Shown in pieces: positions 12,964-59,381 of a stretch of 64,000 nt of DNA. The notes under the pieces were generated by a model. It saw nothing but the letters and a program-made list of their open reading frames with translations, ran no database searches and was not told the origin of the DNA. Position 1 is the first letter of the stretch. Every line of letters starts with the position of its first letter. The stretch is from a bacterium (GTDB lineage: Bacteria > Krumholzibacteriota > Krumholzibacteriia > LZORAL124-64-63). The position numbers and the translations under genes are program-made. The stretch spans positions 51,787 through 115,786 of the forward strand of contig JAGRNP010000001.1 in NCBI GenBank assembly GCA_020440705.1, read 5' to 3'.

Positions 12964-13116
12964 CACATTCAGCGGAGAAGTCCGGGACCGGACCGGCCTT
13001 CAATATAGCACACGGCCGGCCGGCCGGCCACGGCGATCGCAGGGGCTTCCGGCCCGCGGCCGCCCGTGGTACGATGCCGCGGTTGTGCCCCGCACCCCCT
13101 CCCCCGAGGTTCCATC

Positions 13117-15168: not shown

Positions 15169-17042
15169 TGAAGAGCCTCACGATCCTGCTGCTCGTGGCC
15201 GCCGCCGGGCTGCCTGCATTGGCCGCCGCCGGCCCCGGCGTCTCGAACGGGCACGACCTCGACGCGCTGTGGGCCCGGGCCGAGGCGGGGCACGACCTCG
15301 CGCGCGAGGACGCCGTGGTGCTGCTCGACGACCTGTCCGTCACCGTCGCCGCCGACGGGACCATCGCCACCCGTCTGCACACCGTCGTGTGGATCGGCAC
15401 CGCCCAGGGCATCCGGCACTACGCCGACCTGCGCGTGCCCTGGAACGCGGCGACGTCCACCCTCGACGTGGAACTGCTGCGCACCTGGCGCGACGACCGC
15501 TGGTGGCCCGACGCCGCACGCATCAGCGAGACGGCCGTGGTGCACACCCTGCCCTACGCCGTGCGCGCCGCCCCCGACTACGCCGACCTGCGGGAGACCA
15601 TGCTGCTGCACGACGGCATCGAACTGCCCTGCCTCGTGGAGACGGCCTACACCATCACGGAGCGGGGCCGGCCGGTGGCGGACGGGTCGTTCGGGTTCCG
15701 CGTCGCGGATCCCGCGGTGCGGATCGCGCGGTCGGTGAGCCTGCCGGCGGGCGGCGAACTCGTCGTCGACGGCCGCTTCGGCGCGCCGGCGGCGCAGCGC
15801 GACGGCGCGTCGTGGACCTGGGTCGCCGAGGACGCGCCCCCCCACGCCTGGCCTGTCGCCGGCGACGTGCGGACCTACGAGCCGACGGTCTTCTGGTCCG
15901 CCGGCGCCGACGCGGCCGCCGCCGGCCGCGCCTGGTCCGACGCCTTCGAGGCGGCGGTGGCCGGGTACGACGCCGACGCCCTCGCTCCCGACCTGGGCGC
16001 CGCCGTGGCCGGGGCCGCCGGTGGCGTGGCCGAGGTCCGGGCGGTGCTCGGGTTCCTGCGCGACACGGTCCGGCCGGTCGGCACCGCGCCGGCGCCCTGG
16101 CGTTTCCGGCCCCGCACCGCTGCGCGCACCTGGGACACGGCGTACGGCCATGTCCTGGACCGGGCGGTCCTCGCCACCGCCGTCCTGCGCGGCCTGGGTT
16201 GGCGCGTGGCGCCCCGCTTCGCCGTCGAAGACGCGGCGTCGGTCGACCACGCCCTCGAACTGGGCCGCCTGGTGCTGGTCGTCGATCATGCCGGGGACGC
16301 GTCGGCGCTGATCGTCGACGCCGCGACGGGCGCGCTCGGCGACGGCGCCGACGCGGCGGCCCTGGTCGATCCCGCCGCAGCCACCACGGCGATCTCCGAC
16401 GCGCCCGCGTCCGACTTTGCTCTCGTGATCAGCCTCGCGCCCGGGAAGGAGGGCGCCTGGCAGGGCACGGGCCGGCTCGCGACCCGCGGCCTCTTCGCCA
16501 CCGCGGCGCCGTTCCTCGCCGGCGGCGACGGGGTGCGCGACCACGTCGCGGCGGTGGTGGGCTCGGTGCTCCCGGACGCGACGGTGGACGGCGTGAACGT
16601 CCGGCTCGCCGGGCCGGGAAGGCACGAGGTCGAGTTCGCCGTGACGGTGCCCGCGCCCGAGGGCGACGAGATGCGCTTCGTCGTCGGCTCGCCCGCCGGC
16701 GGCCTGCCCGCGGCCCTGCCCCACGACGTGAACGTGGCCGACGCGGCGCGGCAGTCGCCCATCGCCTGGCGCGGGGCCGCGCGCCAGAGCGTCACCCTGC
16801 GCCTGGATCTCGGCGGGCGCACCGTGGTGCACCGGCCGGCCGATCGCGACCTGAGCGCTGACAGCGGCCTCTTCCAAGCCGTGACGACCGCTGACGACGA
16901 CCGGCTGACCTTCCGGCGCGAGCTCACGCTCGTGGCCGCGCGGGCTCCGGAGCACTGGCCGTCGGTGCGCGGGCTGCTGCTGGCGGAGACCGACGCCGCC
17001 GCGGCGACGATCGTGCTGGGCCCGGCTTCGGCCGCGGACTAG
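15168..17042 (+). CDS. Secreted paralogue of the preceding transglutaminase-like protein (DUF3857/3858-like). It lacks the catalytic Cys, so it is a putative pseudo-enzyme partner.
   Basis: TGATG stop/start overlap with the upstream gene. Signal peptide MKSLTILLLVAAAGLPALAAAGPG. Very high GC3 in frame. The region homologous to the TGase core reads TWDTAYGHVLDRAVLATAVLRGLGW, with no Cys. Confidence 0.62.
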   Translation: MKSLTILLLVAAAGLPALAAAGPGVSNGHDLDALWARAEAGHDLAREDAVVLLDDLSVTVAADGTIATRLHTVVWIGTAQGIRHYADLRVPWNAATSTLDVELLRTWRDDRWWPDAARISETAVVHTLPYAVRAAPDYADLRETMLLHDGIELPCLVETAYTITERGRPVADGSFGFRVADPAVRIARSVSLPAGGELVVDGRFGAPAAQRDGASWTWVAEDAPPHAWPVAGDVRTYEPTVFWSAGADAAAAGRAWSDAFEAAVAGYDADALAPDLGAAVAGAAGGVAEVRAVLGFLRDTVRPVGTAPAPWRFRPRTAARTWDTAYGHVLDRAVLATAVLRGLGWRVAPRFAVEDAASVDHALELGRLVLVVDHAGDASALIVDAATGALGDGADAAALVDPAAATTAISDAPASDFALVISLAPGKEGAWQGTGRLATRGLFATAAPFLAGGDGVRDHVAAVVGSVLPDATVDGVNVRLAGPGRHEVEFAVTVPAPEGDEMRFVVGSPAGGLPAALPHDVNVADAARQSPIAWRGAARQSVTLRLDLGGRTVVHRPADRDLSADSGLFQAVTTADDDRLTFRRELTLVAARAPEHWPSVRGLLLAETDAAAATIVLGPASAAD

Positions 17043-17120: not shown

Positions 17121-18512
17121 CTACTTCTCCGCCACCAGCAGCTTCATGTACGCCTTGATGTCGGTGCACCCGTCGAAGCCCCACGTCGCCTCGATGACGG
17201 CGTCCTGGCGCTCGCGCGAGATCACCGCCTCGCTGTTGGCCCGGAACTTGGCGATCAGTTCGTCGTCGCTGAGCGGGTTCTGCGGGCTGCCCTTGGCGTG
17301 GTCGACGGTCTTCTCGAAGGAGCGCCCGTCGCTGGTCGTGATGGTCGCGATGGCCCGCTTGGTGCCGGGGAACATGGCGTCGATCTCGGCGTTGGCCACG
17401 ACCTTGATCTTGCCGAGCAGCGCCCGGATGCGCGGGTCGAAGAGCTTGTCCTGCTCGAAGCTGTTGGGGTAGACGCCGCCGTCGGCCGCGACGGCCGCCA
17501 GGCAGTAGGGCAGGCTGTGGTCGGCGGTCTCCTTGGTCTGCGGATCGTACTTCGAGGGGTCCGAGAGGATGTCCGCGCCGCGGGCGGTGGTCTGGATGTG
17601 GATCGAGGCCACGTCCTCGGCCACCAGGCCGTTCTCCTTCATGATGCCCTGCACCGCCGACATGGGCTGGTGCGTGAGGGCCTCGGTGGGGAAGGCCTTG
17701 TAGCCGCAGTCGGTGATGAGGAACGTCTCCCCCAGCCCCTCGAGCAGGATCTCCGGCTTCAGCTTCACGGTCGGGATGACGTGTTCGAAGCCCTCCTTGC
17801 CCTCGATGACCTCGACGGGTCCCTCGTAACCCTCGGCGGCCATCTGGGCCGCGAGCACGCCGGCCTGGGTGGCCAGGGGGTCGGCGGTGTTCTTCATGTT
17901 GGTCAGCGCGCCGGCCACGACGCCGCCCTGGGTGTAGTGGCTGCTGCCGCTGATGCCCGCCGCGGCGACCATCTGCGCCCGGTCCAGGCCGTACATGCGA
18001 CCGGCCACGAAGGGGCTCACGAACTGCGTCAGGGTGGCGTGGTGCCAGCCCACCTCGCGCACGCCCGGGAAGCAGGCCAGGCACCAGCGCATCTCCAGCT
18101 CGTACGCGATCATGATGCCGACCAACGCCTCGCGGCCGTCGCGGCCCAGGGCTTCGGCCGGACTGATGGCGCCGAAGATGATGTCCGAGGGATGGCTCGG
18201 GTCCTGCTCCCAGTAGATGTCGTTGTAGTCGAGGGCCCGCACCAGGAGGCTGTTCATCAGGGCCGCGCCGGCGGCGTTGGTCCGGGCGCCGGTGCCGATG
18301 AGCGTGCTCTCGGGCGTGCCGCCCTGGCGGGCGATGAAGCGGTACATGGCGGCCATGTCCCTGTTGTTCACGGCGGCCAGGGCGCAGCCCACGCTGTCCA
18401 GCAGGAAGCGCTTGGCCTCCTTGATGGAGACCGCGGGGATGTCCTCGTATTTCAGGTTGATGGCGAAATCGGCCATCCTGCCGGTCAGGCTGTCTTGGGG
18501 GGCGTGGCTCAT
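17121..18512 (-). CDS. MmgE/PrpD family protein (2-methylcitrate dehydratase / IRG1-like)
   Basis: 463 aa with full-length PrpD-family similarity (...AAGISGSSHYTQGGV...CGYKAFPTE...). GGAGG RBS. Confidence 0.88.
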   Translation of the reverse strand: MSHAPQDSLTGRMADFAINLKYEDIPAVSIKEAKRFLLDSVGCALAAVNNRDMAAMYRFIARQGGTPESTLIGTGARTNAAGAALMNSLLVRALDYNDIYWEQDPSHPSDIIFGAISPAEALGRDGREALVGIMIAYELEMRWCLACFPGVREVGWHHATLTQFVSPFVAGRMYGLDRAQMVAAAGISGSSHYTQGGVVAGALTNMKNTADPLATQAGVLAAQMAAEGYEGPVEVIEGKEGFEHVIPTVKLKPEILLEGLGETFLITDCGYKAFPTEALTHQPMSAVQGIMKENGLVAEDVASIHIQTTARGADILSDPSKYDPQTKETADHSLPYCLAAVAADGGVYPNSFEQDKLFDPRIRALLGKIKVVANAEIDAMFPGTKRAIATITTSDGRSFEKTVDHAKGSPQNPLSDDELIAKFRANSEAVISRERQDAVIEATWGFDGCTDIKAYMKLLVAEK

Positions 18513-18618: not shown

Positions 18619-19980
18619 CTAGACCACGCCCTGGTCCAGCATCGAGTCGGCGACCTTCAGGAAGCCGGCGATGTTGGCGCCGTTGACGTAGTTGCCCGGC
18701 GTGCCGAACTCGTTGGCGGCCGCCATGCTCGCTGCGTGGATGCTCTTCATGATGCCGTGCAGTTTCTGATCGACCTCTTCGCGGGTCCAGTTGTAGCGCA
18801 TGCTGTTCTGCGACATCTCCAGGCCGGAGACCGCCACGCCGCCGGCGTTGGCGGCCTTGCCCGGACCGTAGAGGATCTTCGCGTCGACGAAGTGGTTCAC
18901 GCCGTCGGGAACCGTCGGCATGTTCGCGCCCTCGCTGACGACGTAGACGCCGTTGCGCAGCAGGTTCTTGGCGTCCTGCTCGTTGATCTCGTTCTGGGTC
19001 GCCGAGGGGAACGCGCAGTCGGCCTTGTGGTCCCACAGGGGATTGTGGTCCATGCCCGGATCGACGGCGGTGTAGACGGCGCCGGGGAACTTGTCGGCGT
19101 ACTCCTTCACGCGGCCGCGCCTGACGTTCTTCAGATCCATCAGGAAGGCCAGCTTCTCGCGCGTGAAGCCCGCCTCGTCCAGGATGTAGCCGCCGCTGTC
19201 CGAGCAGGTGATCGGCTTGGCGCCCAGGTCGAGCAGCTTCTCGATGGTGTACTGGGCCACGTTGCCGGAGCCCGAGACCAGGGCGGTCTTGCCCTCGAGG
19301 GTCTCGTTGCGCGTACCCAGCATCTCGGCCGCGAAGTACACGGCGCCGTAGCCGGTGGCCTCGGGCCGGATGAGGCTGCCGCCCCAGTTCAGGCCCTTGC
19401 CCGTCAGCACGCCCACGAACTCGTTGCGCAGCTTCTTGTACTGGCCGAAGAGGAAGCCGATCTCCCGGCCGCCGACGCCGATGTCGCCCGCCGGGACGTC
19501 GGTGTTGCCGCCGATGTGGCGGAAGAGCTCGCTCATGAAGCTCTGGGTGAAACGCATGACTTCGAGGTCGCTCTTGCCCTTGGGGTCGAAGTCCGAACCG
19601 CCCTTGCCGCCGCCCATGGGCAGCGTCGTCAGGCTGTTCTTGAAGACCTGCTCGAAGGCCAGGAACTTGAGGATGCCCAGGTTCACGCTCGGATGGAAAC
19701 GCAGGCCGCCCTTGTAGGGGCCGATGGCGCTGTTCATCTCGATCCGGAAGCCCTTGTTGACCTGGACCTCGCCCTTGTCGTCCACCCAGGGGACACGGAA
19801 CAGGATGACACGCTCGGGCTCGACGATGCGCTCCAGGATCTTGGCCTTGCGGTACTCCGGACGCTTGTCCAGCACCGGCCAGATGGATTCGACGACCTCT
19901 TCGACCGCCTGGTGGAACTCCACTTCCGCAGGGTTCTTGGCGATGACGTTTTCCATGAAGGCAGCAACGTTCTGGGCCAT
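18619..19980 (-). CDS. gdhA: NADP-specific glutamate dehydrogenase (hexameric 50-kDa class)
   Basis: 453 aa, MAQNVAAFMENVIAKNPAEVEFHQAVEEVVESIWPVLDKRPEYRKAKILERIVEPERVILFRVPWVDDKGEVQVNKGFRIEMNSAIGPYKGGLRFHPSVNLGILKFLAFEQVFKNSLTTLPMGGGKGGSDFDPKGKSDLEVMRF... matches E. coli GdhA along its full length. Confidence 0.92.
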   Translation of the reverse strand: MAQNVAAFMENVIAKNPAEVEFHQAVEEVVESIWPVLDKRPEYRKAKILERIVEPERVILFRVPWVDDKGEVQVNKGFRIEMNSAIGPYKGGLRFHPSVNLGILKFLAFEQVFKNSLTTLPMGGGKGGSDFDPKGKSDLEVMRFTQSFMSELFRHIGGNTDVPAGDIGVGGREIGFLFGQYKKLRNEFVGVLTGKGLNWGGSLIRPEATGYGAVYFAAEMLGTRNETLEGKTALVSGSGNVAQYTIEKLLDLGAKPITCSDSGGYILDEAGFTREKLAFLMDLKNVRRGRVKEYADKFPGAVYTAVDPGMDHNPLWDHKADCAFPSATQNEINEQDAKNLLRNGVYVVSEGANMPTVPDGVNHFVDAKILYGPGKAANAGGVAVSGLEMSQNSMRYNWTREEVDQKLHGIMKSIHAASMAAANEFGTPGNYVNGANIAGFLKVADSMLDQGVV

Positions 19981-20360: not shown

Positions 20361-20681
20361 ATGGACTTTCACGAACTGCAGAAGACCCGCGTGGGCGACC
20401 TGCGCGAGATGATGAAGGAGCACTGCCCGGAGACGACGGGAGTCGTCGGCATGAAGAAGGACGAGCTGGTGGCCGCCCTGGCCGAGAAGCTCGGCATCGA
20501 GGCCCCCCACAAGCACGTGGCGGCGGGCCTGGGCAAGCGCGCCATCAAGGCCGAGATCCGCGACATGAAGGTCAAACGCCAGGCCGCCCTCGCGGCCGGC
20601 GACGGCGCCGAGCTGAAGAAGTTCCGGCGCCTGATCCATCGCCGCAAGCGCCGGCTGCGCCGGATGATGTCCCTCGACTAG
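20361..20681 (+). CDS. Small Rho_N/SAP-like domain protein (Rho termination factor N-terminal domain-containing)
   Basis: Strong RBS GGAAGGAGAAAG 5 nt before the ATG. MDFHELQKTRVGDLREMMKEHCPETTGVVGMKKDELVAALAEKLGIEAPHKH... followed by a basic tail KFRRLIHRRKRRLRRMMSLD. Confidence 0.6.
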   Translation: MDFHELQKTRVGDLREMMKEHCPETTGVVGMKKDELVAALAEKLGIEAPHKHVAAGLGKRAIKAEIRDMKVKRQAALAAGDGAELKKFRRLIHRRKRRLRRMMSLD

Positions 20682-20759
20682 CCCCGGCGGGCACCGGACG
20701 CACCAGGGGCGGCCCCGCGGCCGCCCCTGTCCGTATCCGGCCGCTCCCGCGCCGCCCCG

Positions 20760-23501
20760 CTAGTCGGGATCGTCGAGCCGCCGCGCGGCGTTGGTCACCG
20801 CGCCGATCATCGCCGCCAGGCCGCTGCCCGCCTCGACCTCCAGGTCGCTGACGAAGGTCACGTCGAGCATGCCCGGCATGCGCACGCCGGTGCGCGAGTA
20901 GTTCATCTCGGCCAGGGCCAGACTCCAGCCCTGGAACCAGCACTCGAGCTGGTAGAGCCGGGTCTGGTCGCCCGCGAAGTGGACCAGCAGGTCGATGTCG
21001 CTGTCGGGCCGGGCGGTGCCGTTCTTCACCGAACCGTAGAGGTACACGCCCTTGACCTGGAACCGCTCGCGGTCGAGGGCCCGCACCATGCGCTCGGCCA
21101 TGCGGAACCGCCAGCGCCAGAACTGCCGGGGCTCGTGCAGCGGCTGCGGTGCGCTGGCGGTGCCGCCGACGCTGCGGGCCGCCTCCTCCGGGCCGAGCGC
21201 CGCGAGGGCGCGGTCCTGGTCGCCGTTCAGGTACACGTGCAGCACGTCGCCCCCCGTGACCGCCGGCACGTCGATGACGCGCACGCATGCGGCGAGATGG
21301 GCGTGGTCGGGCAGCAGTTCGGGCAGCAGGTTGGCGCTGCCGGTCAGGAATTCGGCACTGAAGACCACGTCGGCGTCGTCCGGGTACAAAGGCAGGTAGC
21401 GGATCTGCGCCTCGACCAGATCCTGGAAGAAGTGGGTGCCGAAGCTGAGGTCCGGCAGGTAGTTGCCCACCTTGCGGGCCACCTCGATCAGCATCGCCGT
21501 GTTGTTGATGTCGGCGTAGGTCACGCGCACGCCCAGCTTGATGTCGCCCCGGCTGCCCCAGCGCCCCGGCCCGATCAGGATGAAGCGGCGCTTGGGGAGC
21601 AGGCCGTTCAGCAGGCCCACGGCCCGGCCCACCTCGGCCATGGCCTCGGCCGAGGGCAGCTTGCCGTACACGGCCGGATCCACGTACACGATGTGGGAGA
21701 TCGGCGGCACGTAGCCGTTGGAGATGTGGCGGTGCGCCGTGAAGATGACGCGGTCGGCCGGGATGTCGGTGGGGATCGGGGCCGGCGCCGCGTCGCCCGT
21801 CATGGCCTGCGGGCGGCACTGCAGCAGGTAGAACTCCTTGCCGTCGTGGGCGAATTCCAGGTCGACCGGCGTGTTCATGTACTGGGACAGGGTGCTCAGC
21901 AGGGCGTTCATCTTGTCGATGAAGTCGGTGCCGCCGAGCAGCCCCTCCATGTCCGGCACGAGGTCGTCGTTCTGCGGATCGATCATCAGGCGCGAGACCT
22001 GCTCGAGCCGCCCGTTGCGCAACACGGAGAAGACCTTGTCGATGAGCGGGTACTGGCCGTCCGCCTCCTTCAACAGGGCCTCCAGCGGCACGGTCTCGAA
22101 CGAGTTCGTCTCGAGGTTGATGACGTCGGCGTAGCGCGGGCAGTAGCGCAGGATCTCGTCGAGGGACTGGTTGGCGCGCAGACCCGGCTGCGACGGCACC
22201 GCCAGCACGGGGAAGTCGTCGGCGGTGCGATCGACCGCGCGGGTGCCCAGGCCCGGCACCAGGCGGATCAGGCCGTCGTCGCGCTGGATGCGCGGCGACC
22301 AGCGGAACTCGTTCAGGCTGAAGGCCACCCCCGCGAAGGCCGGCAGCCAGTAGCGCCCGACGCGCGTGCCGACGACCTCCTGGATGAGAATGCCCATCTC
22401 CTCCACGAACTCCTGCAGGCCCCGCTCGCGGCGGTACTCGATGGGGTCGGGCCCGAGCACCGACGCCCACACCTCGGCCACGGCCTCGAGCAGGGCGTCC
22501 ATGCGCTCGGTCTTGTTGCCCTGGTTCGCCAGGAAGAGGCTCTTGTACTTGCCGGAGAAGGCGGTGCCGAAGCGGTCCTCGAGCAGGCTCGAGCTGCGGA
22601 TGATCAGCGGCACCTCGCCGAAGTAGTCCAGCGCGCGCGAGAGGCCGGTGAGCACCTCGGGCGGGAACGAGCTGTTCTTGAACAGCTGGATCATGTTGGG
22701 GTACTCGCGGCGGACCTGCGTGATGTCCTTGAACTTCTGGTCCATCACGTCTTCGAGGTCGTTCAGCTTGATGAAGTCCATGATCGCGTCGGAGATGATC
22801 GACCACGTGCGCGGGAACTTCACCTCGCCGAGGCCGAGCTGGGCGATCTCGGGCTGCTCGAGGATCCAGCGGGCGAGCAGCAGGCCCGACGCCTTGCCCC
22901 CCAGCTTGCCGTAGCTGCCCTGGGGCATGATCACGTGGTCGAGGATGTTGTGGAAGTCGGTGATGCGCACCACTTCCTTGGCCACGTTGATGAAGTCGAG
23001 CTGCTCGGTGAGGAAGCGCTGGATCAGCGAGACGCGCAGGCTCTTCAGGGTGCTGTGGTTCAGGCCGCTGCGCCCGAGCAGGAGCTCGTGGTACTTGCGG
23101 ATGGCCTGGGCGATCTCGGGCATGGTGCTGCGGGGGTCGCCCACCACCGTGCTGAAGAAGCCGGCCTCCTCCTCCTTGACCCACTTCTCGAGCCGCTGCT
23201 CGATCTCCTCGTCGCCGAGGAATTCGGCCGCCAGTTCGAAGGGCGCGCCGCTGAACAGCGGCGAGCCCTCGAGGTCGAGCCGGAAGCCGGGCGCGTTGCC
23301 GTCACGCACCGAGACGCCCGACTGGGCGTCGTCGAACTCGGCCAGCATCTGCTGGGCGCCCGACAGGCCGATGGAGCAGAGATGGTTCAGCATCTTGCGC
23401 GAGACCCGCAGGAACTGTTTCCTGCGGGTCCGGCGCATCTCGTCGATCCGGTCGCGCCAGTTGCCGACCGGAAGATCGGGGCTGTCGGGGCGGTCGGTCA
23501 C
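20760..23501 (-). CDS. PPDK_N (PEP synthase/pyruvate phosphate dikinase nucleotide-binding ATP-grasp) domain protein with a C-terminal Pol-beta-type nucleotidyltransferase domain
   Basis: 913 aa. Central part ...PQGSYGKLGGKASGLLLA...LIIRSSSLLEDRFGTAFSGKYKSLFLANQG...LIGPGRWGSRGD...GTHFFQDL... is PEP-utilising N-domain-like. C-terminus ...GVYLYGSVKNGTARPDSDIDLLVHF... carries the minimal NTase motif GS-x9-D-x-D. GTG start 4 nt after the gdh2 stop. Confidence 0.82.
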   Translation of the reverse strand: MTDRPDSPDLPVGNWRDRIDEMRRTRRKQFLRVSRKMLNHLCSIGLSGAQQMLAEFDDAQSGVSVRDGNAPGFRLDLEGSPLFSGAPFELAAEFLGDEEIEQRLEKWVKEEEAGFFSTVVGDPRSTMPEIAQAIRKYHELLLGRSGLNHSTLKSLRVSLIQRFLTEQLDFINVAKEVVRITDFHNILDHVIMPQGSYGKLGGKASGLLLARWILEQPEIAQLGLGEVKFPRTWSIISDAIMDFIKLNDLEDVMDQKFKDITQVRREYPNMIQLFKNSSFPPEVLTGLSRALDYFGEVPLIIRSSSLLEDRFGTAFSGKYKSLFLANQGNKTERMDALLEAVAEVWASVLGPDPIEYRRERGLQEFVEEMGILIQEVVGTRVGRYWLPAFAGVAFSLNEFRWSPRIQRDDGLIRLVPGLGTRAVDRTADDFPVLAVPSQPGLRANQSLDEILRYCPRYADVINLETNSFETVPLEALLKEADGQYPLIDKVFSVLRNGRLEQVSRLMIDPQNDDLVPDMEGLLGGTDFIDKMNALLSTLSQYMNTPVDLEFAHDGKEFYLLQCRPQAMTGDAAPAPIPTDIPADRVIFTAHRHISNGYVPPISHIVYVDPAVYGKLPSAEAMAEVGRAVGLLNGLLPKRRFILIGPGRWGSRGDIKLGVRVTYADINNTAMLIEVARKVGNYLPDLSFGTHFFQDLVEAQIRYLPLYPDDADVVFSAEFLTGSANLLPELLPDHAHLAACVRVIDVPAVTGGDVLHVYLNGDQDRALAALGPEEAARSVGGTASAPQPLHEPRQFWRWRFRMAERMVRALDRERFQVKGVYLYGSVKNGTARPDSDIDLLVHFAGDQTRLYQLECWFQGWSLALAEMNYSRTGVRMPGMLDVTFVSDLEVEAGSGLAAMIGAVTNAARRLDDPD

Positions 23502-23505
23502 GCCA

Positions 23506-24795
<1,290 letters not shown>

Positions 24796-24923
24796 GGCCG
24801 GTCTTCCTCTGCTGGGGTGTGCGGACGGGCGTCGCGTCCCGTCACCTCACGCGCGGCCGGCCCCGGGGCCGGCGGGATTTTCCGGAAATCTCACCACGCC
24901 ATCTCCGGCAGGCAAGAAGATTC

Positions 24924-27905
24924 TCACTCGCCGGCGGCCGCGGCGGCTCCGTCCGGGCGCCGCACCACGCCCCGGCCGCTGCGGCCGTCGATGAGCACCT
25001 CGAGGGGGGCGTCGAGGCGGATCCGGCGCAGGAACCGGCCCACCTCCTCCCCGGGCTGGGCGTCGAACCAGTCCCAGTCGAGGCGGCCGTTGCCGCGGGT
25101 CGAGTTCACCGTCAGGTAGCCCACCTGGAAGCTGGTCAGGTTCTGGAAGAAGTGGGTGCCCTGGCTCGGCGTGACCTTGAAGTCGTCGAGGTCGGTCTCG
25201 ACGATGACGCGGGCCCCCGAGATCTGCTCCCAGCGCACGGGGATGCCGAGCCAGCGGTCGGACGAGCCCCAGCGACCCGGCCCGATCAGCAGGTAGGGCC
25301 GTGCGTCCTGGACCATGGCGCGGTTGGCCTTGCCGATCTCGTCGGCGATGGCCTGGGTCTCGGCCCGGTCGAAGCGGTCGCGGGGCACGTAGAGGATGTC
25401 CCGGATCTGGTCGCGCCGACCGTTGCCCAGGGCGACGTCGGTGGCGACGAGGGCATCGTCGTCCGCGAGGGCTTCCGGCGGGACCTCGGGCGCGTCGTAG
25501 CCGGCGGCCAGGGGACGGATCTGCAGGAAGCCGAACTGGTGCGGCCGCAGCTCGCCGTCGCCCAGCACGACGGCGAACTCGATCTCCACCTCGGCGCTCA
25601 TGGTGCGGCGGCCGAGTTCGAGCAGCAGGCGCAGGATCTCCGCGAGGGGGAACAGGTCCGCCTTCAGCACGTGGGCGAAGGTCACCAGCCGCGAGCCCGG
25701 CCGGTGGATCCCGTCGTAGATCATGTTGTTCTCGGGCGAGAAGACCGACCCGATGGGCTCGAGGGTGCCGTGCCGCTCGGCGTCCGCCAGTTCGAGGTGG
25801 GCCAGGTTGAAATCGTCCCGGTCGCCCGGATACGCCTCGGGGTGGCTGATGTCGACCGCCCAGAACCGCCGCTGGGAGAGTTTCAGCCAGTCGTTGATGG
25901 TGCCGAACTGGGGCAGCGAGGTCGGGTTCGCCGGGCTGAAGCGCAGGGCCCGGCCCCCCTCCACCACGGTGCGCCCGAGGCCCAGGGCCACGGTGGCCAC
26001 CCCGTCCCTGGGATCCATGCCGTCGGCCGGATAGAAGTTCGACGAGTTGGCCACGCCCGAGAAGTGCGGGTAGTCGAAGTTCTCGTACCGCTGCCCCACC
26101 ATCTGCTGGATGATGACGGCCATCTTCTCTTCCTCGATGCGGTTGCTCGTGGCCTCGATGTAGCTCTTGGCCGCCCGCGAGTAGGCCGAGGCGAAGACGA
26201 GCTTGATGGCGTCGCAGAGCTGGTCGAGGCGCACCTTCAGGTCGTCGTGGCTGTTGGCCAGCATGTAGGTCGAGTAGACCCCGGCGAAGGGCTGGAACTG
26301 GCTGTCCTCGAGCAGGCTGCTCGAGCGCACGGCCAGGGGGTAGCGCACCTGCTCGAGGAAGGCCTCGAGGTCGCCGTAGATCTCCGACGGCAGCTTGGCC
26401 GCGAGGAAGGCCGCGTTGATCTCCTCGTCCGGCATCTCGCCGGTGACCCGTGCCCGCAGGTCGTCCTGCTTCATGAACGAGTCGAAGACGTCTGTGCCCA
26501 CCACCGCCGTGGACGGCACCTGGATCAGGGTGCCGGGGTAGCGGTTGGTGACGCCGTAGCGGAACAGGATCGAGTTCATGAAGGCGAGACCGCGCCCCTT
26601 GCCGCCGAGCGAGCCGCCCCCGATGCGCACGAAGGCGCTGCTGGTGTCGAAGTGCCGGCGCGAGAAGTCGGCCACGACGCCACGCTGGCTCTCGGTGCGG
26701 AAGCGGGCGATGATCCGGATCAGGTACTCGCGCAGGTCCTCCACCTCGGCGAACTCCGTCACCTTCACCGGGCGCAGGTCGGCGGCCAGCTCGAACTCCG
26801 TGCGGGCGCGCAGCCAGTTGCTGAAGTGGTCGTGGCTCGCGTGATGCCGGATCGATTCGCCCGGCACGGTCCGCAGCAGCTGCAGCAGCGTCTTGAGGTC
26901 GGGCGCGCGCCCCACCTCGGTGCCGTCCGGCAGGCGGAAGACGAAGTCGCCGAAGCCGAAGTTCTCGAGCATGAAGTTGCGCAGCTCCTGCAGCAGGTGC
27001 CGGCTCTTCTTGCGGATGAAGCCGGCGCCGATCTCGTCGGCCACCTCGCTGAGGTCCTCGTCCGTCGACTGCAGCACGGCCGGCGTGTGGGGGTCGACGA
27101 ACTTCACGCGGCGGATGAACTCCACCCCCGCATCCGGGTTCTCGACGCCCTGCCAGGGGAAGCGCCCGTCCGAGATCACGCCCAGCAGCGAGTCCTTGTA
27201 CTCCTGGTAGTACTCCCAGGCCTCCTCGAAGGTGTTGGCCAGGAGGATCTTGGGCCGCGCGCGCAGGCGCAGCAGGCGGTGGCTGATGTTGATGCCCTCG
27301 ACCATCAGGCTCTGGGTCTGGTTCAGCACCTCGGTGTAGATCAACGGCAGGTAGGACGAGTAGAAGCGCACCGAATCCTCGATGAGCAGGATGCAGCGCA
27401 CGTCGCCGTAGCGCGTGTCGTGGGCGACGTTCTTGCGGTCCTCGCAGTACTTGATGATCCCGAGCAGCAGGCGGACGTCGCCGTTCCACAGGAAGTAGCG
27501 GTCGATGCAGCGGACCGTGTCGCGCTCCTGCAGGTGCTGCAGCTCGCGGGGGTTGAAGGCGAGGTTGTAGATGTCGAGTTCGGGGTGCCGTCGCTTGACC
27601 CGACGGGCCAGCTGGGTGGCGTCCATGTCGCCGAGCCGGCTCATGGTGATGACCATGTCGTAGCGACGGGTCTCCATGAGGCGCAGGGCCTCCTCGCCCG
27701 TCGAGGCCCGCGTCACGTGGGGCGGGAAACTCAGGTTGAGCTCGCGGTACTCGTTCAGGAGCACCTCGGTCAGCCGGCCCCCCTCCTCCAGGGTGAAGGC
27801 GTCGTACATGCTCGCCACCAGCAGGATCTCCTGCACCCGGAACGGCATGAGGTGGCCGAAACCGGTGAACGAACGGGTGTTGCGCGTGTCCGAGAGTCGG
27901 GGCAT
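24924..27905 (-). CDS. Tandem receiver (REC, first one degenerate) domains fused to a PPDK_N ATP-grasp domain. Paralogue of the 20760-23501 protein.
   Basis: 993 aa with an AAGGAAG RBS. The N-terminus MPRLSDTRNTRSFTGFGHLMPFRVQEILLVASMYDAF... is pseudo-receiver-like (no DD pair). The second REC is VRCILLIEDSVRFYS.... It then reads GGGSLGGKGRGLAFM...LAVRSSSLLEDSQFQPFAGVYSTYMLANSH...LLIGPGRWGSSDR...GTHFFQNL..., homologous block by block to the other PPDK_N protein. Confidence 0.82.
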   Translation of the reverse strand: MPRLSDTRNTRSFTGFGHLMPFRVQEILLVASMYDAFTLEEGGRLTEVLLNEYRELNLSFPPHVTRASTGEEALRLMETRRYDMVITMSRLGDMDATQLARRVKRRHPELDIYNLAFNPRELQHLQERDTVRCIDRYFLWNGDVRLLLGIIKYCEDRKNVAHDTRYGDVRCILLIEDSVRFYSSYLPLIYTEVLNQTQSLMVEGINISHRLLRLRARPKILLANTFEEAWEYYQEYKDSLLGVISDGRFPWQGVENPDAGVEFIRRVKFVDPHTPAVLQSTDEDLSEVADEIGAGFIRKKSRHLLQELRNFMLENFGFGDFVFRLPDGTEVGRAPDLKTLLQLLRTVPGESIRHHASHDHFSNWLRARTEFELAADLRPVKVTEFAEVEDLREYLIRIIARFRTESQRGVVADFSRRHFDTSSAFVRIGGGSLGGKGRGLAFMNSILFRYGVTNRYPGTLIQVPSTAVVGTDVFDSFMKQDDLRARVTGEMPDEEINAAFLAAKLPSEIYGDLEAFLEQVRYPLAVRSSSLLEDSQFQPFAGVYSTYMLANSHDDLKVRLDQLCDAIKLVFASAYSRAAKSYIEATSNRIEEEKMAVIIQQMVGQRYENFDYPHFSGVANSSNFYPADGMDPRDGVATVALGLGRTVVEGGRALRFSPANPTSLPQFGTINDWLKLSQRRFWAVDISHPEAYPGDRDDFNLAHLELADAERHGTLEPIGSVFSPENNMIYDGIHRPGSRLVTFAHVLKADLFPLAEILRLLLELGRRTMSAEVEIEFAVVLGDGELRPHQFGFLQIRPLAAGYDAPEVPPEALADDDALVATDVALGNGRRDQIRDILYVPRDRFDRAETQAIADEIGKANRAMVQDARPYLLIGPGRWGSSDRWLGIPVRWEQISGARVIVETDLDDFKVTPSQGTHFFQNLTSFQVGYLTVNSTRGNGRLDWDWFDAQPGEEVGRFLRRIRLDAPLEVLIDGRSGRGVVRRPDGAAAAAGE

Positions 27906-28007: not shown

Positions 28008-28862
28008 TCAGAACCCGAAGCCGAAAGCCAGCCGGACCTCGCCGCCCCGGGCCCCGGCCGGCTCGGCGAACACGGTCTCGTGGGCACGGGGCACGGCCCA
28101 GCCGACGAGGGCGCCCACCGACGCGCCGGCGAGGATGTCGGTGGGGAAATGCCGTCCCGCCCGGTAGCGCAGGTAGCCCGTCGTCGAGGCCGCCGCGAGG
28201 CATCCGCCCCACACCCACGCCTCGGCGTCGGCGTCGGGGTGCAGCCGGGTGTAGACGGTGGCGAAGAAGACCATGGCGGCGAAGGCGTTGGCGGTGTGGC
28301 CGGACGGGAACGACCGCGTCGTGGTGCGGGCGCCGCGCAGGGCCGCCGGAATCGCCGGATCGTCGCTGTAGGCGTAGGGGCGCGGCCGGCCGACGAGGTT
28401 CTTCAGGAGATAGGTGATGCCCGTGGTCACGAGAGCCGTCTCGAGATACATGACGGCGATGTCGTCGCGCTGCCCACCGTGGCCCGCGTCGAGCGCGAGG
28501 CCGAGGGGCGCCGCGGCGCAGGCCGCCACGAGCCAGTCGCTGGCCCGGGCCGCGGCCGGCGACCAGTTGTCGACCGCGGAGCGGTCCAGGGCGTTCAGCG
28601 CCGCCGGGTCCAGGGGCTCTCCGGCCGCCGGTCCCGGTTCGTCTCCCCGGTCGAGCCACCAGCCCAGACCGTAGGCCAGCACGCCGCCGACGACGAGCGG
28701 CGCGTCGACCCCGTCACCCGTCCGGTAGCCTGCCTGGGCGGCGGCCTCCCTCGGGGCCGTGACGCCGGCCAGGGCCAGGACCACCAACGTCGCCGCGGCC
28801 CGGCGACCGGAACGGGACCGGCCGGCCGTCGGCGGTGTCGAGTGGCGATGCGGTCCGCTCAT
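28008..28862 (-). CDS. PAP2-family phosphatase (acid phosphatase/phosphatidic acid phosphatase-like), secreted or membrane
   Basis: 284 aa with an Ala-rich signal region and the three PAP2 motifs KNLVGRPRP, SFPSGHT and RAGRHFPTDILAG. Confidence 0.85.
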   Translation of the reverse strand: MSGPHRHSTPPTAGRSRSGRRAAATLVVLALAGVTAPREAAAQAGYRTGDGVDAPLVVGGVLAYGLGWWLDRGDEPGPAAGEPLDPAALNALDRSAVDNWSPAAARASDWLVAACAAAPLGLALDAGHGGQRDDIAVMYLETALVTTGITYLLKNLVGRPRPYAYSDDPAIPAALRGARTTTRSFPSGHTANAFAAMVFFATVYTRLHPDADAEAWVWGGCLAAASTTGYLRYRAGRHFPTDILAGASVGALVGWAVPRAHETVFAEPAGARGGEVRLAFGFGF

Positions 28863-29025
28863 GGTTGCTCCCGGAGTCGCGGGGAAATCACGGTGGCGGC
28901 GGGCGGGACGATATCAGGGCCCGCCCACCCCGTCCAGCCCGTCGGCCGCGACCGGGAGGGCCGCAGACGCGACGACCCCGGGCAGCGGGCCCGGGGTCGT
29001 CGGTCGCCGGGACGGGGCGGCCGGG

Positions 29026-30588
29026 TCAGGCCTTGAACTCCACGCCCTGGGCCAGGTGGATCTCGCCGCCCCAGTTGATGGTATTTGTCTGCCGACGCAT
29101 GTACATCTTCCAGGAGTCGGAACCGGACTCGCGCCCGCCGCCGGTCTCCTTCTCGCCCCCGAAGGCGCCGCCGATCTCGGCGCCCGAGGTGCCGATGTTG
29201 ATGTTGGCGATGCCGCAATCGGAACCGAGGAAGCTGAGGAAGGCCTCGCCCTCGTTCACGCTGTCGGTGTAGATGGCGCTGCTCAGACCCTGCGGCACGT
29301 CGTTGTGCATCCGGAAGGCCTGGTCGATCTTCCTGTACTTCATCACGTACAGGATCGGCGCGAAGGTCTCGCTCTGCACGATCGGCTTGCGGTTGTCGAT
29401 CTCGATGATCGTCGGCTGCACGAAGGTGGCCGCCCCGAAGGGCTTGAGCACCTTGCCGCCGTACAGCACCTTGCCGCCCTGCTCCCTGGCCGCCTTGATG
29501 GCGTCCTCGTAGTCCTTCACGGCGCCCTCGTCGATCAGGGGACCCATCAGCGTCGCCGGATCCAGCGGATCGCCGATGTTCACGCGCTTGTAGTTGGCGA
29601 TGAGCTTCTTCACGAAGGTGTCGTAGACCTTCTCCTGGATGATCAGGCGGCGCGTGCTGGTGCAGCGCTGGCCCGCGGTGCCGACGGCGCCGAAGAAGGC
29701 GCTGGCCAGGGCGCCCGTCAGGTCGGCCTTCTCGCTGATGATGATGGCGTTGTTGCCGCCGAGCTCGAGGATCGCCCGGCCGAGGCGCGCGCCCACGACG
29801 CCGCCGATGCGCTGGCCCATGCGGGTCGAGCCGGTGGCGCTGATCAGGGGCACGTCGTGGTCGTTGACCAGCTTCTCGCCGATGGTCGAGCCGCGGCCGA
29901 TGGTCACGCAGCTGATGCCGGGCGTGATGCCGTTCCGCGCGAAGACCTCGTTGACGATGTTCTGGCAGGCGATGGCGCAGAGCGGCGTCTTGCTCGAGGG
30001 CTTCCAGATGCAGCTGTCCCCGCACACCCAGGCCAGGGCGGTGTTCCAGGCCCACACGGCCACCGGGAAGTTGAAGGCGCTGATGACGCCGACGACACCC
30101 AGGGGGTGCCACTGCTCCATCATGCGGTGCTTGGGCCGCTCGCTCTGCAGCGTCGGGCCGCTCAGGTTGCGGCTTAGCCCCACGGCGAAGTCGCAGATGT
30201 CGATCATCTCCTGCACCTCGCCCAGACCCTCGGTGTGGATCTTGCCCATCTCCAGGCTCACCAGGGCGCCGAGCATCTCCTTCTTCTCGCGCAGGGCCTC
30301 GCCGATCTGGCGCACGACCTCGCCGCGCTTCGGCGCGGGCAACGCCCGCCAGTCGAGGAAGGCCTGCTTGGCGTACTTCATCACCACGTCGTAGTCCTTC
30401 GTGCTGGCCTGCTCGATCTTCGCCAGCACCTCGCCCGTGGTCGGGTTCCTGGTGACGAGCATGTCCTTGCTGTTCGCGAACCACTCGCCGCCGCAGTTGG
30501 CGCCCTTCATGGTGGGCTTCAGGCCCAACGTCCGGAAGATCTGGGCCTTGGTCACCTTCCTGGTCGCCTGCGTGGTCTTCTTGGCCAT
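29026..30588 (-). CDS. Alpha-aminoadipic semialdehyde / piperideine-6-carboxylate dehydrogenase (ALDH7 'antiquitin' family)
   Basis: This is the real 520-aa part of the chimeric 808-aa ORF. MAKKTTQATRKVTKAQIFRTLGL...IPAPKRGEVVRQIGEALREKKEMLGALVSLEMGKI...ELGGNNAIII...GTAGQRCT...ETFAPILYV...SGAEIGGAFGGEKETGGGRESGSD is co-linear with human ALDH7A1. Confidence 0.9.
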   Translation of the reverse strand: MAKKTTQATRKVTKAQIFRTLGLKPTMKGANCGGEWFANSKDMLVTRNPTTGEVLAKIEQASTKDYDVVMKYAKQAFLDWRALPAPKRGEVVRQIGEALREKKEMLGALVSLEMGKIHTEGLGEVQEMIDICDFAVGLSRNLSGPTLQSERPKHRMMEQWHPLGVVGVISAFNFPVAVWAWNTALAWVCGDSCIWKPSSKTPLCAIACQNIVNEVFARNGITPGISCVTIGRGSTIGEKLVNDHDVPLISATGSTRMGQRIGGVVGARLGRAILELGGNNAIIISEKADLTGALASAFFGAVGTAGQRCTSTRRLIIQEKVYDTFVKKLIANYKRVNIGDPLDPATLMGPLIDEGAVKDYEDAIKAAREQGGKVLYGGKVLKPFGAATFVQPTIIEIDNRKPIVQSETFAPILYVMKYRKIDQAFRMHNDVPQGLSSAIYTDSVNEGEAFLSFLGSDCGIANINIGTSGAEIGGAFGGEKETGGGRESGSDSWKMYMRRQTNTINWGGEIHLAQGVEFKA

Positions 30589-30638
30589 GGCTATCGTTCC
30601 TTTACCTGGTTGTCGCCGTCTCCGGCGGGGTGGTCCGG

Positions 30639-31964
30639 TCAGTAGACCGTCAGTTCTTCCTTGCATGTGATCTCGAGGGTCGCCAGCTCGTCGAGCACCG
30701 GATTGTAGATCTCCGGCGTGACGGGCCGCAGGACCCCGCGGGCGGAAATGCCGCCCTCCAGGATGAGCCGGGCCGCGATGGCCGCGGGCAGGGACACCGT
30801 GCGCGACATGGAGGTGTCGCCGTAGCGGATCCCGAAGTCGACGAGGCTGCTGGTCAGGCGTTCGTAGTGGTTGTCCTCCGGGAACCACGCCTTGAACTCG
30901 TGGAACAGGACGACCATGTCGCGTTCGCCCGGGTTGTAGGTGAGCTTGTCGAGCATGATGTCGCCGAGGGCGTCGAGCGGCGACACCGCGGCGCGGCCGA
31001 TGGGCCGGCGCGAGAAGAGGCCGAGCCAGTGCATGTTCCACGGCGGCAGCGTGTCCGCCGGCAGGCCCATGCGGTGGGCGGCCACGACGCGCAGGTCGTC
31101 CTCCGGGCCGGCGCCGAGCAGACCCCGCATGTAGTCGGCGTAGGTGAGGTCGGCCGCCGGCCTTTCGGCCATGTCGAGCATGCCCACCTTGACGAGGTTG
31201 TGCATGGTGTCGCACCAGCCGATGTAGCGCAGCGTGCCCCGGAACAGCGACCGCACTTCGGCGCCGAGACCGTAGATCTCCCGGTACTCGAGGCTGTCGC
31301 GGTTCGGGTAGGCCTCGAACACGCCCGCCCCCGGCACGGTCAGCAGGTGCATGTCGCGGAAGAGACGCTCCGGCTCCACGATCACCTCGTGGTTGTCGCG
31401 CCAGTAGCGCGCCCCGTTGCGGCTGGCCAGCAGCACGCCCCGCGGCGCCCACGAGAACTTGTAGCCGAAGGGGTTGTCGTTGGCCTCGGGCGCCGGCAGA
31501 CCGCCGCAGTACGAACGGAAATGCCGGATCTTGCCGCCGCGCGCGTGCACGTCGTCGATGATGCGCATGGCCGACATGTGGTCGATGCCCGGATCGAGGC
31601 CGATCTCGTTGAGGAAGATCAGGTCCTTGTCGCGGGCGTCGGCATCGAAGGCCTGCATCTCCGGCGACACGTACGAGGCCGTGACCAGGTTGCGCCGGTG
31701 CTGGAGGCAGTGGTTGGCCACCAGCGGGTGGTAGCTGTACGGCACGAGGCTGATCACCAGGTCGTGGGCCGCCACCAGCTCCGACAGGGCGCGGTCGTCG
31801 TCGAGCACCAGGCGCAGGGCCGTGCCGTTGGGCTCGTCGCCGATCAGCTTCTGGGCGTCCTCGACGGCGAGGCTGGTCACCGTCAGGGCGTAGTCGCGCC
31901 GCAGCAGGTACCGGATCAGGGGACCCGCCACCATGCCCGCGCCGAGCACCAGGATCTTCTTCAC
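30639..31964 (-). CDS. Saccharopine dehydrogenase (NADP+, L-glutamate-forming; LYS9 / AASS-SDH-domain type)
   Basis: GTG start preceded by GGGGAGGGG. VKKILVLGAGMVAGPLIRYLLRR...VTASYVSPEMQAFDADARDKDLIFLNEIGLDPGIDHMSAMRIID...; 441 aa. Confidence 0.85.
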   Translation of the reverse strand: MKKILVLGAGMVAGPLIRYLLRRDYALTVTSLAVEDAQKLIGDEPNGTALRLVLDDDRALSELVAAHDLVISLVPYSYHPLVANHCLQHRRNLVTASYVSPEMQAFDADARDKDLIFLNEIGLDPGIDHMSAMRIIDDVHARGGKIRHFRSYCGGLPAPEANDNPFGYKFSWAPRGVLLASRNGARYWRDNHEVIVEPERLFRDMHLLTVPGAGVFEAYPNRDSLEYREIYGLGAEVRSLFRGTLRYIGWCDTMHNLVKVGMLDMAERPAADLTYADYMRGLLGAGPEDDLRVVAAHRMGLPADTLPPWNMHWLGLFSRRPIGRAAVSPLDALGDIMLDKLTYNPGERDMVVLFHEFKAWFPEDNHYERLTSSLVDFGIRYGDTSMSRTVSLPAAIAARLILEGGISARGVLRPVTPEIYNPVLDELATLEITCKEELTVY

Positions 31965-31993
31965 GCTCGTCCCCTCCCCGGCCGGCGACCCCG

Positions 31994-54192: not shown

Positions 54193-54579
54193 TCAGACGT
54201 ACTCGGCCACGCGTTCGAGCTGGTTCTCCACCGCCGCGAGCAGCACCTCGGCGTCGAAAGGCTTCGTGATGTACTTCATCACGCCCCCCTCGCGCGCCTT
54301 GTGGTAGTCGTCCTCGGCCGTGCGCGCCGTCAGGTAGATCACCGGAATGTCGCTGGTCTCGGTGATGTTCCGCAGGCGTTCGACCACCACGTGGCCGTTG
54401 CCCGCCGGCATGCCGATGTCGAGGATGATGAGGTCCGGGTGCTCCTCGATGGCCTTCTTGGTGGCCCCCAGGCCATCCATGGCCGTCGACACCTTGTAGC
54501 CCTCGGCCCGCAGCCGCAGACTCAGGCTGTGCACGATATCGGGTTCGTCGTCCACGACGAGAATGTGTCCCTTAGACAT
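54193..54579 (-). CDS. Single-domain response regulator (CheY-like receiver)
   Basis: AAAGGAG RBS. MSKGHILVVDDEPDIVHSLSLRLRAEGYKVSTAMDG...LIILDIGMPAGNG...KPF.... Confidence 0.85.
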   Translation of the reverse strand: MSKGHILVVDDEPDIVHSLSLRLRAEGYKVSTAMDGLGATKKAIEEHPDLIILDIGMPAGNGHVVVERLRNITETSDIPVIYLTARTAEDDYHKAREGGVMKYITKPFDAEVLLAAVENQLERVAEYV

Positions 54580-59217: not shown

Positions 59218-59340
59218 GATCCCTCGTCGGTCGGTAGCCCCGCACGACCCGGACCGCCCGGCCCGGGTTTCTTTCCTGTCCAGATTCGGCCGAACTGAGG
59301 GAAACTTTACGCAGGAACGCCACCGCGGGGCAGCGGGGGG

Positions 59341-59381
59341 AATCATGGGAAACGCCCGGCCCCTTCCTGCGGGGCCGGGCG
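59341..59381 (-). terminator. Terminator-like hairpin downstream of the sigma-54 activator gene
   Basis: Stem CGCCCGGCCCC / GGGGCCGGGCG with loop ttcctgc, followed on the minus strand by TTTCCCATGATT. Confidence 0.45.

Follow-up and report, generated by a model that had tools for sequence, protein, structure and literature searches.

A truncated pyruvate, phosphate dikinase (PPDK) with a proposed regulatory role is known from M. tuberculosis. This protein, VadK (Rv1127c), phosphorylates itself on His422, binds two enzymes, methylcitrate synthase and methylcitrate dehydratase, and tunes flux; it has been called a histidine kinase of PPDK origin (PMC13400623). HpeI, a subunit of hydroxyphenylethanone kinase, is a characterised relative with a PPDK_N (ATP-grasp) domain and acts on a small molecule (PMC12167813). 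The joining of receiver (REC) domains to PPDK has been recorded in censuses of response regulators (PMC5847659, PMC4395418), and aspartate-less receivers are enriched before PPDK-type effectors (PMC4395418). In the literature we found the REC and PPDK combination in such censuses only; our searches turned up neither functional studies nor any account of the C-terminal domain discussed below or of a linkage to glutamate dehydrogenase (GDH). Here we describe a locus in a stretch of 64,000 nucleotides (nt) of contig JAGRNP010000001.1 (assembly GCA_020440705.1), which we refer to as the window. In this locus a GDH gene (GDH2) lies between the genes of two large PPDK_N proteins: RRPP, which resembles a response regulator, and PPNT, which ends in a minimal nucleotidyltransferase (NTase). 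The nearest relatives are Krumholzibacteriia, and we regard the locus as the form that a widespread but uncharacterised GDH-linked module takes in this class. The cluster, and a second GDH gene close to it, are laid out as follows (lengths of proteins in amino acids, aa; ORF, open reading frame).

24924-27905, minus strand: RRPP, a 993-aa response-regulator-like protein (ORF, Pfam, AlphaFold2 model, Foldseek)
24796-24923, minus strand: intergenic region of 128 nt, with the GC-rich palindrome CCGGCCCCGGGGCCGG inside it
23506-24795, minus strand: GDH2, a 429-aa hexameric-type GDH (Pfam ELFV_dehydrog_N and ELFV_dehydrog; PDB match)
23502-23505, minus strand: spacer of 4 nt between GDH2 and PPNT
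20760-23501, minus strand: PPNT, a 913-aa PPDK_N/minimal-nucleotidyltransferase protein with a GTG start
18619-19980, minus strand: NADP-type gdhA, 453 aa, 780 nt downstream of PPNT (NCBIfam PRK09414)

Our case for a GDH-linked module begins with gene order. A scan of one genome per species gave at least 593 relatives of PPNT; neighbourhoods were taken from the best 80 of these, and neighbours were counted by tblastn with the window proteins in the 68 loci that have at least 4 kb of upstream flank. Represented among the best 80 are Krumholzibacteria, Eisenbacteria, Gemmatimonadota, Acidobacteriota (Holophagae, Thermoanaerobaculia and Aminicenantes), Myxococcota, Zixibacteria, Ignavibacteria/Melioribacter, Calditrichota, Cloacimonadota, Fermentibacteria and Planctomycetota, the taxon labels of metagenome-assembled genomes being unreliable and the ORF starts in the loci approximate. 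A GDH2-type gene lies within 4 kb upstream of PPNT and on the same strand in 62 of the 68 loci, across more than 10 phyla, so the coupling to GDH that the sequence-only reading had noticed is conserved elsewhere and is not unique to the window genome. In 47 of the 68 loci, GDH2 and PPNT are separated by the gene of a stand-alone paralogue of ~580 aa, an RRPP gene is present near the core genes in 19, and gdhA is present in 13. Nearly all of the RRPP genes (17 of 19) have a GDH gene of the same orientation within a distance of <450 bp, 10 beside GDH2 and 7 beside NADP-type gdhA, which ties the family to GDH itself and not to one pathway. On the PPNT side the spacing to GDH or to the short paralogue is either a gap of 2-4 nt or an overlap of 8-14 nt in the four long contigs, and PPNT proteins are 50-80% identical across phyla. 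Judged from this arrangement, GDH appears to be co-transcribed with the paralogous PPDK_N enzymes in a widespread and tightly conserved operon.

The stand-alone protein is a third paralogue that consists of the ATP-grasp and C-terminal domains only and is 41-45% identical to the C-terminal half of RRPP. Fusions of this short paralogue with PPNT are also found (P0361, P0365 and P0382; 1523-1654 aa), some of which could be sequencing frameshifts, because there are loci in which the two genes overlap in different reading frames. The placement of the short paralogue between GDH2 and PPNT in the 47 loci, together with the natural fusions, argues for joint action of the paralogues. Many loci also carry a metallophosphoesterase of ~285 aa, which directly follows PPNT, mostly in convergent orientation, in 41 of 84 loci from several phyla and is not found in the window. 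This protein is divergent (Pfam Metallophos, 29-30 bits); as to its subtype, NCBIfam gave very weak generic matches only and the PDB none, and it is possibly either an eraser of a modification or a pathway hydrolase. A fourth paralogue, of 776 aa and without the NTase, is 43% identical to residues 88-769 of the window PPNT, and in L083 it adjoins the metallophosphoesterase. Examples in loci other than the window (L numbers) are the following.

L001:6266-8014, L083:8260-10008 and L084:8164-9996: third paralogue
L083:13182-15512 (on a contig shared with L074) and L022:18312-20603: fourth paralogue
L001:11168-12043, L083:15555-16415 and 39 further loci: metallophosphoesterase

The two large proteins of the window had been taken for paralogues because of their common motifs, and this is correct: BLASTP aligns PPNT 227-705 with RRPP 461-933 at 27% identity over ~500 aa (E 3e-29), and GGK, RSSSLLED, GPGRWGS and GTHFFQ[DN]L are present in both. 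AlphaFold2 models built on 62-sequence alignments (at least 55% identity) had a predicted local distance difference test score (pLDDT) of 81 and a predicted template-modelling score (pTM) of 0.75 for RRPP, and a pLDDT of 81 and a pTM of 0.66 for PPNT. From the N-terminus, RRPP is made up of a pseudo-receiver, a receiver, a helical linker, the PPDK_N ATP-grasp and a novel C-terminal domain. PPNT has, in order, a helical domain, the ATP-grasp, the same C-terminal domain and the minimal NTase. The parts of RRPP are given first.

27408-27830, minus strand: REC1, aspartate-less pseudo-receiver, residues 26-166 ((beta-alpha)5 in the AlphaFold2 model; partial Response_reg match of 28-32 bits)
26961-27395, minus strand: REC2, canonical receiver, residues 171-315 ((beta-alpha)5 in the AlphaFold2 model; conserved residue set)
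26688-26945, minus strand: beta-hairpin and helical linker, DUF5752-like, residues 321-406 (Pfam PF19027)
25506-26633, minus strand: ATP-grasp (PPDK_N) of RRPP, residues 425-800 (Pfam, Foldseek, invariant catalytic motifs)
24951-25475, minus strand: C-terminal domain of RRPP, residues 811-985, with the GPGRWGS loop and H918 (three-class alignment)
22917-23501, minus strand: all-helical N-terminal domain of PPNT, residues 1-195 (AlphaFold2 secondary structure)
21768-22910, minus strand: ATP-grasp (PPDK_N) of PPNT, residues 198-578 (K203, R302-S305, E308/D309, E549, Q561, R563)
21177-21764, minus strand: C-terminal domain of PPNT, residues 580-775 (G644-P-G-R-W-G-S650; H690, codon 21432-21434)
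20802-21119, minus strand: MNT-type NTase of PPNT, residues 795-900 (G823, S824, D835, D837, D880)

The ATP-grasp is well supported in both proteins. Pfam places PPDK_N at residues 432-801 of RRPP (E 2e-37) and 200-578 of PPNT (E 5e-55), the RRPP model as a whole finds rifampicin phosphotransferase (RPH), PPDK and PleD in Foldseek, and its ATP-grasp matches the RPH structure 5hv3 with an E of 1e-13. We aligned 60 sequences from three classes (20 PPNT, 20 RRPP and 20 stand-alone paralogues; PPNT numbering), and K203, R302-S305, E308, D309, Q374, E549, Q561 and R563 of the ATP-grasp are invariant throughout. The segment D-L-E-F-A-x8-L-Q-C-R of PPNT corresponds to D-x-E-F-T-x8-L-Q-T-R in real PPDK fragments, and the E-x11-Q-x-R spacing is identical, which suggests that the PPDK-like nucleotide and Mg site of the paralogues is intact. 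The phosphohistidine swivel domain of the dikinases that use phosphoenolpyruvate (PEP) had been judged to be lacking, and a complete PEP synthase was indeed not found: Pfam gave no match to the swivel domain (PF00391) or to PF02896 in RRPP or PPNT. The NCBIfam models for PEP synthase, PPDK and RPH scored only 17-67 bits against cutoffs of 598-1063 and covered part of the ATP-grasp only, and RRPP and PPNT are therefore not PEP synthases.

Both proteins carry an alpha/beta domain of ~180 aa that directly follows the PPDK_N region of Pfam. G644, G646, R647, G649, G657, E673, G688, H690 and F691 of this domain are invariant in all 60 sequences of the alignment, while W648, D653, S686, F692 and Y702 are kept in 57-59. 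The invariant histidine, H690 in the GTHFFQ motif, opens a helix (689-697) at its N-terminus in the AlphaFold2 secondary structure, and its counterpart in RRPP is H918 (codon 25152-25154, checked). The domain has no Pfam match, no PDB sequence match and no fold match to a swivel domain, and appears to be novel and specific to this family. When the domain was compared by phmmer with 1.84 billion representatives, it matched only 1649 proteins, 974 of them at E<=1e-10, and where checked it always stands behind a PPDK_N domain, in architectures of ~580 aa (stand-alone), 700-815 aa and ~1000 aa (RRPP) and in the PPNT fusions described above. The possibility that it is a divergent phosphohistidine swivel domain was considered and rejected as unsupported, though still conceivable. 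By eye, some segments are alike (LGNG with ASPG, VIVE...SQGTHFF with GILT.GGMTSHAA, VDGRSGRGVV with LDGSTGEV), but hmmscan found no PF00391, hhalign against a profile of the PPDK central domain gave a probability of <1% (E ~0.1), and a profile search of PDB sequences returned chance longin-domain matches only. Long Foldseek alignments to PPDK (640-720 columns) are suggestive but, as they lack alignment ranges, not interpretable. This shared domain with its invariant histidine, the third paralogue and the degenerate state of the first receiver had all escaped the sequence-only reading.

The description of the N-terminal part of RRPP as two receivers is correct as to fold. The (beta-alpha)5 receiver fold occurs twice in the secondary structure of the AlphaFold2 model, and in Foldseek the tandem matches PleD (2e-6) and 3luf (7e-5), and these matches and those of many single REC domains range from E 2e-6 to 2e-3. 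Canonical residues are confined to the second receiver, in which E176, D177, D246, S280 and K299 are invariant in 62 of 62 RRPP homologues, and D246 (codon 27168-27170, checked) is the predicted phospho-acceptor. At the acceptor position of REC1 stand M88/S89, and W140 replaces the lysine, in 61-62 of the 62 homologues; without the acceptor aspartate and the lysine, REC1 is an aspartate-less pseudo-receiver, and its position ahead of PPDK_N matches the enrichment seen in the census of such domains (PMC4395418). The linker that follows scores 26-29 bits with PF19027 (DUF5752), above the cutoff of 23, and similarly weakly in other family members. The NCBI label of RRPP (MCB1181858.1), 'histidine kinase', is an automatic name only. 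No histidine kinase gene adjoins the cluster, but such genes lie ~30 kb off (54.5-59.4 kb). There, a string of signalling genes at 54572-63683 (minus strand) encodes a REC-HisKA-HATPase hybrid kinase, a HAMP-GAF histidine kinase, a TPR/sigma-54 activator and a triple-receiver protein, which are candidate partners of the RRPP receiver.

For PPNT, residues 1-195 have no significant Pfam match and were assigned to no family. At the other end, Pfam matches NTP_transf_2 at 811-855 (E 2e-9) as well as Polbeta, and the features of a minimal pol-beta-type NTase are present: the G-S motif, DxD and a third carboxylate, D880. The spacing of the motif is GS-x10-DxD, one residue longer than had been given. 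The domain had further been said to recall the adenylyl/uridylyl logic of GlnE/GlnD, which holds as an analogy and is weaker than it was put: only generic NTP_transf_2, Polbeta, MntA and ANT models were matched in Pfam and NCBIfam and none specific to GlnE/GlnD, so that the NTase is of the minimal MNT/NTP_transf_2 type, and its catalytic aspartates are lost in part of the orthologues. MNT antitoxins AMPylate proteins, and MntA and GlnE nucleotidylate protein hydroxyls.

The GDH2 protein matches ELFV_dehydrog_N and ELFV_dehydrog in Pfam (E 1e-55 and 5e-72) and the PDB entries 1gtm/1euz across residues 7-429 (E 1e-122). It is thus a hexameric GDH, as its former assignment as 'Gdh2-type' implied, although its precise class is the ~430-aa, Pyrococcus/RocG-like one. 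The nearby gdhA had been correctly recognised as NADP-type; it scores 745 bits with the NCBIfam model against a cutoff of 536. GDHs of the clusters share two small inserts in the cofactor-binding domain, CVS[SC]WDQxDQTSYxF and GGIDKxKAxxxGYE, which in GDH2 fall in residues 241-290 (23926-24075 of the window) and are both missing from the GDHs of Pyrococcus and Thermococcus. This clade-specific insert region may be a docking or modification surface or a simple clade marker; it has no invariant Ser, Thr, Tyr or His among the cluster GDHs, and we can therefore propose no modification site in it.

The gene calls on which all of this depends are sound. The window has a GC content of ~70%, and the ORFs of the cluster have a GC content at third codon positions of 0.94-0.97 and the codon-position pattern typical of real genes; NCBI's gene calls on the source contig (MCB1181855-58) agree with them. 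Together they bear out the coordinates, the gene order, the 128-nt and 4-nt gaps and the GTG start that had been read from the sequence. The further description of the 128-nt gap as a promoter region was not verified, as a scan of the intergenic regions, this gap included, found neither a sigma-70-like promoter nor an intrinsic terminator on the coding strand. The palindrome CCGGCCCCGGGGCCGG (24850-24880, minus strand) in this RRPP-GDH2 spacer is perfect and is not followed by a T-run; an attenuator or a processing site is conceivable, as is the absence of any role.

Beyond the cluster, the following genes lie upstream of RRPP or converge on PPNT.

28008-28862, minus strand: PAP2 phosphatase, directly upstream of RRPP
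within ORF 29026-31452, minus strand: aldehyde dehydrogenase
within ORF 30639-32750, minus strand: saccharopine dehydrogenase
31994-33319, minus strand: AlaDh_PNT-type, lysine-ketoglutarate-reductase-like gene
20361-20681, plus strand: convergent 106-aa basic protein, with homologues at the same place in close relatives

The genes upstream (28008-33319) make up a lysine/saccharopine catabolic set that yields glutamate and are found in identical order in L002:1-3436; this conserved order indicates that a longer string of amino-acid catabolic genes runs up to the GDH module in the window lineage and terminates with it. The small protein downstream had been described as convergent and Rho_N/SAP-like. 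It is convergent and conserved, having homologues of 68-85% identity in the same position in L002 (where the gene is called), L006, L008 and L009 by tblastn, but its Rho_N/SAP match is not significant (Pfam E 0.05, 14 bits against a cutoff of 24.9), while NCBI names the window copy 'transcription termination factor Rho'. Its gene sits where other lineages have the metallophosphoesterase. Close to the cluster, an MmgE/PrpD-family gene, 2-methylcitrate-dehydratase-like, is present at 17121-18512 (minus strand) and in two close relatives (L002:11427-12818 and L003:5489-5920); that VadK binds a methylcitrate dehydratase may be a coincidence. Two adjoining large DUF3857 proteins are encoded at 13066-17042 (plus strand), the first with a transglutaminase-like core, and have no apparent link to the cluster.

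Our tentative explanation, to which we give somewhat less than an even chance, is that the locus encodes an ATP-driven covalent-modification or regulatory module whose target is GDH or a factor bound to GDH. The ATP-grasp would take a phosphoryl or pyrophosphoryl group from ATP, and the group would then go to the invariant histidine of the C-terminal domain or straight to an acceptor. Either the group or a phosphorylation-dependent conformation would act on GDH or the GDH-bound factor and so set the flux between glutamate and 2-oxoglutarate. In RRPP this activity would come under two-component control through Asp246 of the second receiver, the MNT-type NTase of PPNT could AMPylate a hydroxyl on a shared target, and in most other lineages the metallophosphoesterase beside PPNT may reverse the modification. 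That the family keeps company with either GDH class, includes a receiver protein and forms gene fusions favours a regulatory or modification role over a linear pathway, and the idea of a GDH module is strengthened by the presence of RRPP beside either class, the co-occurrence of the metallophosphoesterase and the precedent of VadK. An unlikely, more elaborate form of this explanation would have the C-terminal domain as a new phospho-carrier or catalytic replacement for the swivel, with the paralogues, the NTase and the phosphoesterase forming a two-component-fed phosphorylation/AMPylation switch on catabolic and anabolic GDHs in many phyla.

Several observations weigh against a module that modifies or regulates GDH. 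The catalytic aspartates of the NTase are substituted in 8-9 of 62 PPNT orthologues (~13%), and the window lineage has a reduced variant of the cluster, RRPP-GDH2-PPNT, without the short paralogue or the metallophosphoesterase, so the AMPylation and eraser steps cannot be universal. The characterised PPDK_N enzymes that we found, VadK excepted, all have small molecules as substrates, namely rifampin, pyruvate or aryl ketones. The identity of PPNT across phyla seems unusually high for a regulator and would suit a core enzyme equally well. To our knowledge, it is also uncommon for a regulator to be co-translated with a catabolic enzyme that is abundant.

An alternative that we consider possible, if rather unlikely, is that the PPDK_N proteins are small-molecule dikinases or ligases which phosphorylate or nucleotidylate, or both, a metabolite produced or consumed next to the GDH reaction (for example one derived from glutamate or 2-oxoglutarate, or from amino-acid catabolism). 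The C-terminal domain would then be a substrate-binding or phospho-carrier domain and the metallophosphoesterase a pathway hydrolase. Such a role would be in keeping with the closest characterised relatives, RPH, PEP synthase, PPDK and HpeI, all of which use small molecules (PMC12167813), with the very high conservation between phyla, with the tight operon with a catabolic enzyme and with the lysine/saccharopine genes that precede the cluster in the window lineage. However, the gene calls of the four long contigs show no other pathway enzyme consistently nearby, and no candidate substrate can be named. The association with catabolic GDH2 and anabolic gdhA alike is also at odds with a metabolic step of this kind, as is RRPP, a response regulator whose architecture is typical of signalling outputs.

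The invariant histidine and the canonical receiver on one polypeptide raise another possibility, a non-canonical phosphorelay, in which the ATP-grasp and C-terminal domain would form an unorthodox histidine kinase that phosphorylates its own invariant histidine and hands the phosphoryl group on to D246 of RRPP or to another response regulator, GDH being merely co-regulated. The description of VadK as a histidine kinase (PMC13400623) and the label of RRPP at NCBI, for what an automatic name is worth, point the same way. We nevertheless regard a phosphorelay as improbable because RRPP is near the core genes in only 19 of the 68 loci, receivers are missing from PPNT and from the short paralogue, and no DNA-binding or other output is encoded; it would also leave the near-obligate adjacency to GDH unexplained. 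Still less credence is due to the notion that these are ordinary paralogues of PEP synthase or PPDK with a part in gluconeogenesis from amino acids, or that their adjacency to GDH is meaningless. PPDK_N is the top Pfam match, PEP synthase models are among the NCBIfam matches and the names 'pyruvate, water dikinase' and 'pyruvate, phosphate dikinase' appear on some entries in databases, but the NCBIfam scores are far below cutoff and partial, the absence of both PF00391 and PF02896 contradicts such an identity, and chance is contradicted by the synteny across more than 10 phyla and by the gene fusions. Finally, an element of toxin-antitoxin or anti-phage type with the MNT-type NTase at its centre is hardly credible. 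In its favour, the NTase matches MntA-type antitoxins and the PADLOC candidate models PDC-S09 over 35-45 residues around GS...DxD. Against it, PADLOC matched nothing beyond that motif, neither a HEPN partner nor any further defence gene was found (Pfam, PADLOC), the context is housekeeping metabolism conserved between phyla, and the NTase makes up only a small part, at the C-terminus, of an enzyme of 900 aa; we therefore rejected this identity.

A modification or regulatory module acting on GDH, the explanation that we tentatively prefer, would be of some consequence. GDH is the junction of carbon and nitrogen metabolism and the main entry point of amino-acid carbon in the protein-degrading carriers of the cluster (Ignavibacteria, Calditrichota, Cloacimonadota, Acidobacteriota and Krumholzibacteria). 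The control of bacterial hexameric GDHs is generally held to run mainly through transcription and through allostery or partner proteins. An ATP-driven, signal-responsive modification would be a new layer of control and could explain how organisms that have an NADP-type as well as an NAD-type GDH escape a futile cycle; if it took the form of the switch outlined above, it would be the GDH counterpart of the GlnE/glutamine synthetase and AceK/isocitrate dehydrogenase systems. The cluster is a concrete and testable gene set with cultured carriers. It also shows a PPDK-type ATP-grasp that has been re-used with a non-canonical C-terminal domain outside PEP metabolism, which extends the case of VadK well past the actinobacteria.

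In comparison with known systems, the proteins described here share parts with several and coincide with none. Like the PEP-utilising dikinases (RPH, PEP synthase and PPDK), RRPP and PPNT have a PPDK_N domain with the catalytic Lys, Glu, Gln and Arg, but they lack the PF00391 swivel with its G-G-x-T-S-H motif and have neither PF02896 nor a rifampin-binding domain, so that two of the three defining features of that group are missing. The two-subunit aryl dikinases HpeHI/AcvAB and phenylphosphate synthase also have a stand-alone PPDK_N subunit, which works with a partner carrying the PEP-utilizers His domain. No gene for such a partner was found in the GDH clusters (gene calls of loci related to the window), and the context of those enzymes is aromatic catabolism instead of GDH.

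The accessory domains have their own counterparts. PleD resembles RRPP in having tandem receivers, one of them degenerate, before an enzymatic domain; in PleD, however, the first receiver is phosphorylated and the output is GGDEF, whereas in RRPP the first is degenerate, the second canonical and the output PPDK_N. The NTase of PPNT shares with MntA the minimal pol-beta fold, GS...DxD and the third aspartate. In contrast to the MntA/HepT pair, it has no HEPN partner (no HEPN family is among the Pfam matches of neighbour genes in the window and four related loci), forms one polypeptide with a dikinase-like enzyme and has degenerated in some orthologues. With GlnE/GlnD the likeness lies in the notion that a protein hydroxyl is nucleotidylated at a node of nitrogen metabolism. 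VadK resembles RRPP and PPNT in having a PPDK-type ATP-grasp without a PEP/pyruvate domain and in its genomic and functional tie to specific metabolic enzymes. It differs in keeping the canonical PPDK phosphohistidine domain, with His422, where RRPP and PPNT have an unrelated-looking C-terminal domain with an invariant histidine. It is also linked to the methylcitrate cycle, whereas RRPP and PPNT belong to a set of two to three paralogues, with receiver and NTase modules, that is linked to GDH.

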